A DNA stretch of 64,000 nucleotides from Pseudomonadota bacterium (GTDB lineage: Bacteria > Myxococcota_A > Polyangia > Haliangiales > Haliangiaceae). The translations under genes and the position numbers were made by a program. The stretch covers positions 1,069 through 65,068 of the forward strand of contig JAEWJO010000803.1 in the NCBI GenBank assembly GCA_023386455.1. Reading direction: 5' to 3'. Shown here one piece after another: positions 3,929 to 59,446 of this stretch (its first letter is position 1; every line of letters begins with the position of its first letter). Below the pieces are notes generated by a model. It saw nothing but the letters and a program-made list of their open reading frames with translations. It had not been told where the DNA came from and searched no databases.

Positions 3929-3943
3929 GCAACCCGCGTGCCG
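3929..3943 (-). promoter_or_regulatory. Sigma-54-type -24/-12 element upstream of ccoNO
   Basis: Minus strand CGGCAC-gcggg-TTGC. The C of GC is 16 nt before the A of the ccoNO ATG. Confidence 0.6.
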
Positions 3944-3970
3944 CGCGTACGGCTCCTCCCGTACGAATCG

Positions 3971-3987
3971 CGCGCAACTCCTGCGCG
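3971..3987. promoter_or_regulatory. 17-bp palindrome CGCGCA-N5-TGCGCG (candidate activator site) between ccoNO and the mini-ORF
   Basis: cgcgca actcc tgcgcg; the two arms are perfect reverse complements. Confidence 0.5.
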
Positions 3988-4045
3988 CATCGAGGTGTGC
4001 GCTGCAACCGCTGCGGGAGTTTGCCTCGGATCGTGCGATCTCGCG

Positions 4046-4061
4046 TGGCACGGCCGGTGCT
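4046..4061 (+). promoter_or_regulatory. Sigma-54-type element upstream of the 34-aa ORF
   Basis: TGGCAC-ggccg-GTGCT. GC to ATG is 15 nt. Confidence 0.55.
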
Positions 4062-4074
4062 CTCACGCGGCGTC

Positions 4075-4179
4075 ATGAAGAAGCCGAAAGACCCGTGGGC
4101 CATCCCGCTCGAGGTGATCCTGTGGACGACCTACAGCGTCGGCCTGATCATGGTGATGGTCGTGGTGCTGATGAACTAG
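4075..4179 (+). CDS. 34-aa hydrophobic mini-protein, unknown function
   Basis: MKKPKDPWAIPLEVILWTTYSVGLIMVMVVVLMN. Nearly every codon ends in G/C, unlike the flanking non-coding DNA. One TM helix. A sigma-54-like element lies 15 nt upstream. Confidence 0.4.
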   Translation: MKKPKDPWAIPLEVILWTTYSVGLIMVMVVVLMN

Positions 4180-6107
4180 GTGCCGAGCACTTCGTTCAGC
4201 GCGTCGAGCAGCTCGTCGATCTTCACGGGCTTCGTCAGGTAGCGATAGAACCCGGCCTCGCGCGCACGACTCGTATCGCGCGCCATCGCGGCCGCGCTGA
4301 GCGCGATCACCGGGATCCGCGCGGTCTCGGGCCAGCTCTTCAGCAGCTTGACCGCATCGAACCCGCTCATGCCGGGCAGGTTGATGTCCATGATCACGGC
4401 GGCGGGCTGCTGCGCGCGGACGATCTCGAGACCGATCTCCGCGGTCGGTGCGGTCAGCAGCTCGACGGCAGGCAGGTCCGACATGAGCTCGCGCATGAAC
4501 GCGATGTTCGACGGGTTGTCCTCGACGTAGACGATCCGGTGCGCGGAGGGAGCCCCCGCGAGCGCCGAGCCCTCGGCGATGTGTGGCTTCGCGGCCGCGG
4601 CGTCGTCCGACTTCGCGACGTGGACCGGAACATCGACCCAGAACTGCGAGCCTTTGCCTTCCTCGCTCGCGAACCCGACCGAGCCCTGCATCAGCTCGGC
4701 GAGCCGCTTGCTGATCGACAGGCCGATGCCCGTGCCCTCGATCGGTCCGGTCTCCTGGCCCGCGCGCTGGAACGGCTCGAAGATCCTGTCGCGCTTGTCG
4801 GTCGGGATTCCCATCCCGTCGTCGACGACGGTGAGCCGCACGTGCGAGTGCACGCGCGCGCTCCTGAACACGACGTGGCCGCCGGGGCGGTTGTACTTGA
4901 TCGCGTTCGACCCGTAGTTCATCAGGATCTGCGCGAGTCGCGTCCGATCCGCGATGACCTCGGGGACGCCGGCGATCTCCGAGACGAGATCGACGCCCGC
5001 GCGTTGCGCCATTGGCTCGAGCGTCGTCAGGACCTCGGCGACCATCTCGTCGACCCGCACGGGCTCGTTCGAGATCGCGACGCGTCCGGCCTCGATGCGG
5101 GCGAGGTCGAGCACCTCGTCGATGAGGCGCAGGAGGTGCTCGCCGCCGGACAGCACGTGGCCGAGCCGGTCGAGCTGGCGGTCGCTGAGCGGTTGCTTGC
5201 GATCGCGCTGGAGCAGCTGCGCGAACCCGAGGATCGCGTTCAGCGGCGTGCGCAGCTCGTGGCTCATCGAGGCGAGGAACTCGCTCTTCGCGGCGCTGGC
5301 AGCCTCCGCCTGCTGGCGCGCGCGGCTGAGCTCCTCCGCGCGCAGGATGTCGTCGGTGATGTCGACGATCAGCGATACCGTGCCATGCTCCGCCGTCGCG
5401 CGATCGGTGACGCGAAGCATCCGGCCGGTGCGCGTGCGCAGCTCGAGCGAGCCGGCGGGTTCGCGGTGATAGTCGACCCAGCGCTGCCGGAGGTCGGCGG
5501 CGGGCTCGGAGCCCGGATCGATCAGCGGCAGGATCGCGTCGGCAAGCTCGTCGAACCGGCGGCCGACGACCGCGCCCGCGACGGACGCACCGACGAGCTG
5601 GCGGAACGAGCTGTTGACGAGGACCACCCGGTCCTCCTCGTCGTAGAGCGAGAACGCGTCCTGGATACTGTCGACCGAGGACAGGAGATAGGCGTTCGCG
5701 CGGCGGGCCTCGTCCTCGATGCGCTTGCGATCGCTGACGTCGCGGATCGCGGCCGAGAACAGCGTCCCCTGATCGACCTGGATCGGCGAGAGGCTGATCT
5801 CGACGGGGAACTCGGTGCCGTCCTTGCGCCGGCCCGACAGCTCGAGGCCGGTGCCCATCGGTCGCGACCGCGGTGCGCCGGTGTAGCCGCGGACGTGCGC
5901 GGGGTGGCGGCCGCGCAGCCGCTCGGGGATCAGGATCTCGATCGGCTTGCCGAGCAGGTCCGCGCGCGCGTAGCCGAACATCCGCTCGGTCTGCGCGTTG
6001 ACGAGCATGATCGCGCCTTCGCGATCGCAGACGATGATGCCATCGGGCGCGGACTCGACGAGCTCGCGAAAGCGCAGCTCGGCGTCGGGGGACGTTTCAC
6101 GCAGCAT
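4176..6107 (-). CDS. Hybrid sensor histidine kinase (PAS-PAS-HisKA-HATPase-receiver)
   Basis: ORF track 643 aa. H-box SHELRTPLNAILGF, G-boxes, and a C-terminal receiver (RIVYVEDNPSNI...DINLPGMSG). Confidence 0.9.
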   Translation of the reverse strand: MLRETSPDAELRFRELVESAPDGIIVCDREGAIMLVNAQTERMFGYARADLLGKPIEILIPERLRGRHPAHVRGYTGAPRSRPMGTGLELSGRRKDGTEFPVEISLSPIQVDQGTLFSAAIRDVSDRKRIEDEARRANAYLLSSVDSIQDAFSLYDEEDRVVLVNSSFRQLVGASVAGAVVGRRFDELADAILPLIDPGSEPAADLRQRWVDYHREPAGSLELRTRTGRMLRVTDRATAEHGTVSLIVDITDDILRAEELSRARQQAEAASAAKSEFLASMSHELRTPLNAILGFAQLLQRDRKQPLSDRQLDRLGHVLSGGEHLLRLIDEVLDLARIEAGRVAISNEPVRVDEMVAEVLTTLEPMAQRAGVDLVSEIAGVPEVIADRTRLAQILMNYGSNAIKYNRPGGHVVFRSARVHSHVRLTVVDDGMGIPTDKRDRIFEPFQRAGQETGPIEGTGIGLSISKRLAELMQGSVGFASEEGKGSQFWVDVPVHVAKSDDAAAAKPHIAEGSALAGAPSAHRIVYVEDNPSNIAFMRELMSDLPAVELLTAPTAEIGLEIVRAQQPAAVIMDINLPGMSGFDAVKLLKSWPETARIPVIALSAAAMARDTSRAREAGFYRYLTKPVKIDELLDALNEVLGT

Positions 6108-58405: not shown

Positions 58406-59196
58406 CGAAACACTCCATCGCGTGCCCGGAGCGCGCCGGCGATGAGCGCCTCGAGCGCCTCGCGCACCCTGGCGGCGGCACGCGCGACGAGCTCCGGATC
58501 GGCGGCATCCTCGGCGGTGTGTCCGCGATGGAGCTCGATCGGCGCGCCGTAGACGATCCGGACGTGCGCCGGCAGCGGCAGCGGCGACGCGGGAATCGGG
58601 AGGTACGGCGCCCCGAACATGCGAAGCGGCAGCTTCGCGAGCAGCGGCCAGCTCTCCTCGGCGCCGATGATCGCGGCGGGCACGACCGGGGCGGCGAACC
58701 GGATCGCGTGCTCGGCAAAGCCGACGCGCCAGTCCTGCAGCCGGTAGCGATCGCGATACGGCTTCGCCGGCCCGGTGACGCCCTCCGGGAAGATCACCAG
58801 CAACTCGTCGCGCAGCAGCAGGCGGCGCACGTTCGCGCGCGTGCCGCTGATCGCACCCATGCGCGCCAGGAACGCGCTGACGAGCGGGAGTCGGGGCACG
58901 AAGTGGTCGGCGACGGGCCGCGGGATCCGAGGCGGATCGGATCGCCGCACGAGATCGAGGCAGAGCAGCGCGCCGTCGACGGGCAAGAAGCCGCCGTGGT
59001 TCGCGACCACGATCGTCGGACCGCGCGCGGGCAGGTGCTCGATGCCCGACGACTCGACCCGGAAGTATCGCTCGTAGAGCGGCGCGACGAGGTCGACGAC
59101 CGCCGCGAGGCTGCGAGGGTCGAGGCCGAACACGTCATAGCCGCGTCCCTCGTCGTAGAACGGAGCGGCATTGCCGAGTCGTGCGAGCGAGTCCAT
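58402..59196 (-). CDS. Lysophospholipid / 1-acyl-glycerol-3-phosphate acyltransferase family protein
   Basis: VANHGGFLPVDG (HX4D acyltransferase motif) and FPEGV motif. ATGA overlap with the SDR gene. Confidence 0.85.
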   Translation of the reverse strand: MDSLARLGNAAPFYDEGRGYDVFGLDPRSLAAVVDLVAPLYERYFRVESSGIEHLPARGPTIVVANHGGFLPVDGALLCLDLVRRSDPPRIPRPVADHFVPRLPLVSAFLARMGAISGTRANVRRLLLRDELLVIFPEGVTGPAKPYRDRYRLQDWRVGFAEHAIRFAAPVVPAAIIGAEESWPLLAKLPLRMFGAPYLPIPASPLPLPAHVRIVYGAPIELHRGHTAEDAADPELVARAAARVREALEALIAGALRARDGVFR

Positions 59197-59212
59197 TTCC
59201 GCTCGGCACGTA

Positions 59213-59227
59213 GCAAGACGCGGGCCC
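59213..59227 (-). promoter_or_regulatory. Sigma-54-type element upstream of the acyltransferase/SDR operon
   Basis: Minus strand GGGCCC-gcgtc-TTGC. GC to ATG is 17 nt. Confidence 0.4.
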
Positions 59228-59299
59228 CTGGGCGCGGGCCGAGGCAGCTCGTCGCGACGCCATGCGCGTCACGGGTGCAGCGTACGGGCCAGCACGCAG

Positions 59300-59320
59300 G
59301 ATGCGCAGGGCTTGCGCATC
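59300..59320. promoter_or_regulatory. 21-bp perfect palindrome GATGCGCA-N5-TGCGCATC (core TGCGCA-N5-TGCGCA)
   Basis: gatgcgca gggct tgcgcatc. Lies between the divergent acyltransferase and USP promoters. Confidence 0.5.
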
Positions 59321-59430
59321 GATCGGTGGCCGCGCGAGACCTGCGCGAAATCTCCGGCGGCGGCCCCGGAAATACGGGCGAAGGTCGAGCGATGTGGGAG
59401 CGGTTGCCCCGCGCGCAGGCCCAGCCGAGC

Positions 59431-59446
59431 TGGCCGCGACGTTGCA
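59431..59446 (+). promoter_or_regulatory. Sigma-54-type element upstream of the tandem USP gene
   Basis: TGGCCG-cgacg-TTGCA. GC to ATG is 14 nt. Confidence 0.55.

Follow-up and report, generated by a model that had tools for sequence, protein, structure and literature searches.

Putative sigma-54 promoters abutting start codons and candidate leaderless mRNAs in a Haliangiales lineage

Here we describe a recurrent arrangement in a 64-kb stretch of contig JAEWJO010000803.1 (hereafter the window), from an uncultured member of the Myxococcota that falls near the Kofleriaceae, in the order Haliangiales or next to it. In this arrangement, elements resembling the -24/-12 consensus of sigma-54 promoters lie at a nearly fixed distance from start codons. 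This distance, d, is counted in nucleotides (nt) from the C of the -12 GC doublet to the A of the start codon. From the motif, its spacing and its recurrence in relatives, we conclude that sigma-54 promoters giving leaderless mRNAs under the control of enhancer-binding proteins (EBPs) are probably the usual sigma-54 layout in this lineage. The layout would drive roughly 19 of the approximately 30 transcription units of the window, including two of its four EBP genes, and the units that appear to be under it include those of the cbb3 oxidase, nirK, ytfE, USP, HPF, CBS, DksA-like, flavodoxin and alcohol dehydrogenase (ADH) genes. Both components, sigma-54/EBP promoters and leaderless mRNAs, are well known; their systematic combination appears to be new.

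The window has a G+C content of 69%, and homologues of two of its proteins carry the label Kofleriaceae or Myxococcales in their sources. Its respiratory genes comprise a fused ccoNO cbb3 oxidase, a nirK-cytochrome c fusion, nosZ with accessory genes, and a ytfE-like gene, alongside an Mrp/Ehr-type operon and a molybdopterin oxidoreductase. Small stress proteins (tandem USP, HPF, CBS, DksA-like, nitroreductase-like, flavodoxin, ADH, rhodanese, and acyltransferase) and sensor kinases (PAS and protoglobin histidine kinases) are also encoded.

Spacing of sigma-54-like elements and start codons

Both strands were scored with an approximate sigma-54 matrix (TGGCACG-N4-TTGCW; main cut-off at least 10 bits), and start codons were derived from open reading frames (ORFs), Pfam boundaries, and public gene calls. 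The scan returned 24 matches in the window compared with 9.7 +/- 2.9 in 100 dinucleotide shuffles, and 18 of the 24 have an ATG at d14-18, an arrangement that the shuffles produced 0.6 times on average and at most 3 times. Exact distances are concentrated at d14 (11 sites) and d15 (3 sites), and no comparable distance peak was seen for GTG or TTG in the window scan. A preliminary description of this DNA had expected, on a rough base-composition estimate, only a handful of comparable matches by chance in the whole window and fewer than one in its intergenic DNA; relative to the shuffles, the 14-18 nt offset is clearly enriched in the window. A matrix-free count of GG-N8-TTGC-Nx-ATG gave 8 occurrences at d14 and 0-2 at each other spacing from 6 to 31, and the same type of count with the wrong doublet spacing (GG-N9-GC and GG-N11-GC) gave no peak.

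The 16 sites that had been listed at these distances are all present, with hexamers and distances as given, and the GG and GC doublets of every listed site are separated by exactly 10 nt. Five sites can be added to that list, four at d14 (33902(-), 54736(-), 45288(+), and 59277(-)) and one at d25 (31517(-)). Three of the four cases listed at longer distances also stand (CBS at d24, DUF4266 at d22, and 45319 at d31), while the fourth, before cyt c/nosZ, is doubtful and was rejected as a sigma-54 promoter, its GAGCAC lacking the GG doublet. Over 28 d14 sites, the GG is followed by C in 25, A in 19, C in 21, and G in 18, and the GC is preceded by T and T in 23 and 26 and followed by W in 25.

Controls were obtained by scanning a genome collection with the ccoNO protein, which gave 80 loci from distant taxa (no more than 71% identity) that were taken as negative controls. 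The 693 kb of these loci with at least 60% G+C, from other phyla, contain 137 matches of at least 10 bits, 12 of them with an ATG at d14-18, and their distance profile is flat (Fisher p = 2e-11 for the window versus these controls). Nine loci of relatives (L085, L086, L089-L091, and L172-L175; 165 kb), picked by protein homology from Kofleriaceae, Haliangiaceae, and Myxococcales metagenome genomes, contain 47 matches of at least 10 bits, 24 of them with an ATG at d14-18 (d14, 12; d15, 9; Fisher p = 4e-9 versus controls), and many of the motif-led genes in these loci are unrelated to denitrification. The only loci of the ccoNO scan with the layout are L006 and L077, a single case each, and the Myxococcales control loci L005, L007, and L013 have no sigma-54 d14 peak. 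The d14-18 layout is a property of the lineage, within taxonomic bounds that these loci draw only roughly, and not a general property of sigma-54 promoters.

When the count over all loci was restricted to sites leading into an ORF of 60 codons or more, the distances proved bimodal: 66 sites fall at d14-18, with a possible Shine-Dalgarno sequence (SD) in 8 of the 66, few fall at d19-23, and a smaller group falls at d24-38. In this last group, nearly every site that opens on ATG has a GGAGG 4-8 nt ahead of that codon, as at the CBS gene of the window and its L085 counterpart (d25, GGAGG), and at sites in L093, L102, L175, L105, and L110. Such bimodality would be expected if transcription started about 14 nt after the GC, since the start codon would then have to lie either at the 5' end of the mRNA or far enough downstream to leave room for an SD.

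Start codons, leaders and conservation

The start codons on which these distances depend appear to be the ones in use. Pfam domains begin close behind them (REC of the EBP at residue 7, Usp at 4, HPF at 5, COX1 of ccoNO at 12, ScdA_N of ytfE at 6, and flavodoxin at 11), and public gene calls on the same or near-identical contigs use identical ATGs, the flavodoxin being 189 aa; both lines agree with these starts.

Motif-led genes also differ from other genes of the same window in the signals around the start. A GGAG, GAGG, or AGGA lies 4-10 nt before the start in 2 of 18 motif-led genes versus 16 of 32 internal operon genes (p = 0.0067), and the start is ATG in all 18 of the former versus 22 of the latter (p = 0.0085); over all loci, ATG is used at 62 of 66 d14-18 sites. 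The base preceding the ATG is C or T in 39 of 44 d14/d15 sites over all loci (p = 1.4e-7) and is never G in the d14 set. RNA polymerase generally favours start sites with a purine at +1 preceded by a pyrimidine at -1, and the match to this preference suggests the A of the ATG, 14-15 nt beyond the -12 C, as the first transcribed base. The preliminary description had proposed leaders of 2-6 nt; that the mRNAs would be leaderless or nearly so is supported, while a leader of 2-6 nt is less favoured, the pyrimidine at -1 pointing to 0 nt for d14/d15 sites. In Campylobacter jejuni, start sites have been mapped 8-13 nt downstream of the sigma-54 motif (PMC3847290), and a search window of 5-12 nt from the promoter end was used in Sinorhizobium meliloti (PMC3616915); a start on the A at C+14 is at the far edge of these ranges.

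It had also been cautioned that GGAG-like purine runs within the spacer, if used as SDs, would place transcription starts further upstream. As a general explanation this was rejected: the runs mostly adjoin the ATG, those at 12212, 46669, and 55547 ending 1-3 nt before it and hence too close for an SD, and the run of the EBP gene is not kept in orthologues.

Comparison of orthologues separates what is kept from what varies. The promoter of the NtrC-type EBP gene, TGGCACGATCGTCGCT (7402..7432 (+); C 7416, ATG 7430), lies at d14 in the window, is identical in L085 at d14, and has counterparts at d14 in L172, L174, and L175 and at d16 in L173. The spacers between element and ATG have diverged across six genomes (tagggagacctat, tacgaggtcactt, taggtcggttggc, tataaacacgtct, tatgtcgacggac, and tacccgaaggtaccc). 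The distance is likewise d16 in the ccoNO promoter orthologue of L006, d15 in the HPF orthologue of L085, and d15 in the DksA-like gene of L172. For gene 12212, approximately 19 orthologues from genomes and metagenomes have the motif and an in-frame ATG at d14-19, and the motif is absent from its low-GC distant homologues. A motif that is kept, with a spacer of constant length and free sequence, is what would be expected of a promoter positioned relative to the start codon.

Promoters of the window and candidate enhancers

The first cluster of putative promoters surrounds the oxidase and its regulators. The fused ccoNO gene is preceded by CGGCACGCGGGTTGCG (3911..3943 (-); C 3929, a 15-nt gap, ATG 3913, d16). 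Divergent from it, TGGCACGGCCGGTGCT (4046..4077 (+); C 4060, ATG 4075, d15) is the top motif of the window (14.8 bits) and leads only to a 34-aa hydrophobic peptide (MKKPKDPWAIPLEVILWTTYSVGLIMVMVVVLMN, 4075-4179 (+)) with no Pfam match; a transcript of this mini-ORF would read antisense into the PAS histidine kinase gene. The EBP gene at 7430 has, in addition to its d14 element, a distal sigma-54-like site 136 nt 5' of the start codon (AGGCACGTCGACTGCA, 7280..7295 (+)) that is kept in L085 as AGGCATGTCGGCTGCA (L085 position 654); it is a possible second, leadered promoter whose transcript could use an SD. The CBS protein gene is of the leadered class (CGGCCCGCGGCTTGCT, 10525..10565 (-); GGAGG SD, d24), and the HPF hibernation factor gene follows on the other strand (TGGCTCGCACGGTGCA, 10669..10700 (+); C 10683, ATG 10698, d15). 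The DksA-like gene (TGGTGCGAACCGTGCA, 12059..12090 (-); C 12076, ATG 12061, d15) and a gene for a 268-aa membrane protein of no Pfam family (CGGTACGCGAGTTGCT, 12184..12214 (+); C 12198, ATG 12212, d14) are followed by the nirK-cytochrome c fusion (GGGTACGGGGGTTGCT, 13125..13156 (+); C 13139, ATG 13154, d15). In L085 (4207-7199) and L174 (12804-15778), a qNor-type NorB gene and a YwiC-like gene are inserted in an otherwise syntenic EBP/protoglobin-kinase/CBS/HPF neighbourhood; the YwiC-like gene of the window is instead in the ytfE operon (19129-19890).

Further along, the ytfE/ScdA-like gene has a weak site below a 9-bit threshold (TGGTCATGAACCTGCA, 17616..17647 (+); C 17630, ATG 17645, d15), and the first gene of the Mrp/Ehr-type antiporter-like operon has one at d18 (TGGCGCACTGCTTGCA, 21685..21719 (+); C 21699, ATG 21717). 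The new site at d25, with a GGGAGG SD (CGGCATCCCCGATGCA, 31490..31531 (-); C 31517), precedes an uncalled Cys-rich ORF of 76 aa (31262-31492 (-)) with no Pfam match, located in the 370 bp that separate the ABC1 kinase gene from the beta-eliminating lyase gene. The nitroreductase-like gene (GGGCATGGAGGTTGCT, 33886..33916 (-); C 33902, d14; a new site) and norR2, encoding a GAF-type NorR-like EBP (TGGCGCGATTTCTGCT, 33930..33963 (+); C 33944, ATG 33961, d17), have motifs (33901-33945) that stand back to back on opposite strands with only 13 bp between them, so that an enhancer of either promoter must be inside the other gene.

The DUF4266 lipoprotein gene carries a sigma-54-like element at d22 with no SD (TGGAATGCCGCGTGCA, 45171..45209 (-)). 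Nearby, AGGCACCTGCCGTGCA (45274..45322 (+); C 45288, d14) leads to an ORF of six codons, MAVSRT* (45302-45322), with a TGA that overlaps the start codon (ATG at 45319) of a 2-oxoacid_dh-like gene lacking an SD; the short ORF may be a leaderless upstream ORF coupled to that gene by termination-reinitiation. The remaining putative promoters at d14 belong to rhodanese (TGGCCCTCGCGTTGCA, 46517..46547 (-); C 46533, ATG 46519), zinc alcohol dehydrogenase (AGGCATACAGCTTGCT, 46641..46671 (+); C 46655, ATG 46669), a 137-aa protein (CGGCATGCGCCTTGCT, 54720..54750 (-); C 54736; a new site), DUF4389 (CGGCACATCGCTTGCT, 55406..55436 (-); C 55422, ATG 55408), flavodoxin (CGGTATGCGGCTTGCT, 55519..55549 (+); C 55533, ATG 55547), and tandem-USP (TGGCCGCGACGTTGCA, 59431..59461 (+); C 59445, ATG 59459), while that of the acyltransferase lies at d17 (GGGCCCGCGTCTTGCT, 59194..59227 (-); C 59213, ATG 59196). 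One more d14 site (TGGCCCGTACGCTGCA, 59261..59291 (-); C 59277) opens a 42-aa ORF (59135-59263 (-)) that overlaps the start of the acyltransferase out of frame, together with the d17 promoter of that gene. The genes behind the promoters at 3.9-13.2 kb, 33.9 kb, and 46.5-60.3 kb resemble a hypoxia/nitric oxide (NO) dormancy regulon.

Four sigma-54 EBPs had been reported for the window, and all four are borne out by PF00158 matches with E-values of 1e-63 to 1e-74. They are the NtrC-type EBP with REC, AAA+, and HTH domains (7430..8839 (+)), a GAF-type NorR-like EBP (15978..17528 (-)), a PspF-like EBP with no sensor domain (20502..21467 (-)), and norR2 (33961..35529 (+)). Both GAF-type proteins have the canonical GAFTGA loop; the loops are noncanonical in the PspF-like (GAYTGA) and NtrC-type (GSFTGA) proteins.

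Upstream of the promoters, the hexamer TGCGCA is 9-fold enriched. The inverted repeat GCGCA-N5-TGCGC, with one mismatch allowed, occurs 36 times in the window versus 22.4 +/- 4.5 expected, and 17 of the 36 fall in intergenic DNA, which makes up approximately 9% of the window (p = 3e-9). These palindromes are often paired 29-30 bp apart between divergent promoter pairs (12121/12150, 55456/55485, 59303/59332, and 35536/35566). One tandem pair (12121-12135 and 12150-12164, 29 bp apart) lies between the promoters of 12061(-) and 12212(+), a second (55456-55470 and 55485-55499) has its centres 55 and 84 bp from both 55408(-) and 55547(+), and a third (59303-59317 and 59332-59346) separates the acyltransferase promoter from that of USP. 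The pair at 12212 recurs at -91/-62 in the orthologue from L085 and also before window gene 55547, and similar palindromes occur in L086, L092, L102, L105, L110, and L132. We regard the paired repeats as candidate enhancers that one of the four EBPs may bind. The membrane-protein (12158-12199) and flavodoxin (55493-55534) promoters have a block of about 40 nt in common (TGCGCGAACGACCCGCGGG..CGGTAyGCG..TTGCTG), which spans the proximal palindrome and the -24/-12 element.

Proposed mechanism, alternatives and known systems

In the usual layout as we propose it, the A of the ATG would lie 14-15 nt, and at most 18 nt, downstream of the C of the -12 GC. Sigma-54 polymerase would hold the -24/-12 element as a closed complex until an EBP, activated by O2/NO-sensing kinases or through its GAF domain and bound at paired GCGCA-N5-TGCGC sites some 55-105 bp upstream, remodels that complex. 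RNA synthesis would then start on the A of the ATG or within a few nt of it, and ribosomes would initiate on the 5'-terminal AUG without an SD, with downstream genes of the operon translated from ordinary SDs of their own. A minority of sigma-54 promoters would instead have a minimal leader (d of about 24-38) with a strong GGAGG. A far-reaching version of this scheme is one we consider unlikely: transcription would start exactly on the A of the AUG, the whole hypoxia/NO/dormancy regulon, its own activators and HPF included, would be made as leaderless mRNAs, EBPs would make transcription all-or-none, SD-independent translation would favour 70S-type initiation during ribosome hibernation, and the six-codon ORF (45302-45322) would act to load ribosomes for a gene unable to sit at the promoter.

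Several points weigh against the proposed layout. The weight matrix only approximates the published consensus, and rpoN is not among the genes of the 64-kb window. A start exactly 12 nt after the C would give leaders of 2-6 nt, not none; a leaderless mRNA has, however, been defined as one with a leader of 5 nt or less (quoted in PMC12754779), and the 2-6 nt case is said still to qualify. GGAG occurs at workable spacing in ccoNO and the EBP gene, and several other sites have purine runs adjoining the ATG. The ORFs that begin at two of the d14 ATGs are very short (6 and 42 codons). One metagenome locus set was chosen for the presence of the motif, and the inference draws only on the nine loci chosen by homology. 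For the host as for its relatives, the argument is one from sequence and comparison: these show the motif, its spacing, statistics and conservation, the codon and SD biases, the -1 pyrimidine and the EBP genes, and from them sigma-54 dependence, the exact start site, translation without a leader and the assignment of the palindromes to an EBP are inferred.

Among the alternatives, the one that survives best is that the leaderless layout is not specific to sigma-54, the lineage setting promoters of all types beside the starts of first genes. Leaderless expression may indeed be a general habit of the lineage that its sigma-54 promoters follow. In several first genes that lack a sigma-54 motif, hexamers resembling a -10 box lie 6-9 nt from the start (TACGGT-N6-ATG at 31171(-), TATGGT-N9-ATG at 7197(-), and TACGCT-N6-GTG at 53827(+)), and a leaderless sigma-A transcript, that of pexR, has been reported in myxobacteria (PMC12754779). 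These sigma-70-type candidates are, however, a very small sample, and the three Myxococcota control loci show no sigma-54 d14 peak. We regard this alternative as tenable yet short of probable, and it is compatible with, rather than opposed to, the layout proposed here.

A second alternative holds that the element is some other DNA or RNA signal in the 5' untranslated region (UTR), such as the operator of a transcriptional or translational regulator; transcription would then begin further 5' and the purine runs would act as SDs. GGAG-like runs do occur in 5 of 18 spacers, and the link to RpoN is drawn here from the DNA itself. Both invariant doublets and their exact 10-nt spacing match the sigma-54 consensus, however, with N9 and N11 giving no peak, and the element is accompanied by four EBP genes and conserved upstream palindrome pairs. 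The purine runs are mostly 1-3 nt from the ATG and unconserved, sites that need an SD lie at least 10 nt further away and have GGAGG, and an Rfam scan of the whole window matched no family. This explanation is in our view improbable.

Still less credible is the view that the sigma-54 promoters are real and the adjacent ATGs unused, with translation from a downstream SD-led codon on mRNAs with ordinary leaders. Miscalled starts are frequent in high-GC genomes, and in L175 and L172 the public caller placed the start at another ATG, a few codons 5' of that at d14/d15. Against this, Pfam domains begin from residues 4-12 of the ORFs opened by the d14-18 ATGs, these ATGs open long in-frame ORFs in orthologues having different N-terminal residues, GTG and TTG show no peak, and an unused ATG cannot account for one exact distance at approximately 50 independent sites. 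A chance or compositional artefact of a 69% GC genome can be dismissed for practical purposes: GG-N10-GC is frequent in GC-rich DNA and about 10 matrix matches are expected by chance, but 18 abutting ATGs were observed where shuffles gave 0.6, and the high-GC and wrong-spacing controls were flat.

If sigma-54 promoters do systematically yield leaderless mRNAs in this lineage, the only activator-obligate class of bacterial promoter would be linked to SD-independent translation, and an entire respiratory and stress regulon would be able to run without 5' UTRs. The start codon would mark the transcription start, allowing the start sites of sigma-54 promoters to be predicted at base resolution in uncultured organisms; used as a rule, the layout could help to call start codons and to predict regulons more reliably in metagenome genomes of Myxococcota. 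It would also amount to a control module of about 100 bp that works in both directions, a palindrome pair flanked by two gene-abutting promoters. The preliminary description knew of no general architecture combining sigma-54 with leaderless mRNAs, and the literature that we searched likewise gave no description of sigma-54 promoters as a systematic source of them, which is not proof of absence.

Canonical sigma-54/EBP promoters (glnAp2, nifH, pspA, and the NorR-dependent norVW) resemble those of the window in the 10-nt doublet spacing and the TGGCAC-N5-TTGC consensus, as well as in GAFTGA-type EBPs, often-paired upstream inverted-repeat enhancers, and NorR-like regulators beside NO-detoxification genes. 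Textbook sigma-54 promoters give leaders of tens of nt with an SD. In the window, by contrast, only 14-18 nt separate the -12 C from the start codon, with no SD and ATG only, and the whole control region of about 100 bp is common to divergent genes.

The leaderless genes of Deinococcus-Thermus, in which a sigma-70-family -10 element adjoins the ORF (PMC12340547), and those of Actinobacteria are a second point of reference. They share with the window a fixed short distance from promoter to start, the lack of an SD, and a strong preference for AUG; their sigma-70-family factors open DNA unaided, whereas the promoter class of the window would be strictly activator-dependent. To our knowledge, Deinococcus-Thermus and Actinobacteria do not have sigma-54.

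Within the phylum, the sigma-54 regulons of Myxococcus xanthus (e.g. PexR-controlled ahpC/katB, PMC12754779) are like the window in their many EBPs, their stress genes, and the use of repeats as upstream activating sequences. The only transcript that this report calls leaderless is the one from the sigma-A promoter of pexR, no such statement on its sigma-54 transcripts having been found, and the other Myxococcales control loci, L005, L007, and L013, differ from the window in having no d14 peak.

A functional analogy is offered by the mycobacterial DosR regulon, which comprises USPs, nitroreductase-like proteins, CBS proteins, a hibernation factor, and an acyltransferase, responds to O2/NO through haem/PAS kinases, and makes wide use of leaderless mRNAs. 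Its gene content appears to overlap the motif-led set of the window. The regulators differ, DosR being a sigma-70-dependent LuxR-type protein and those of the window sigma-54 EBPs.

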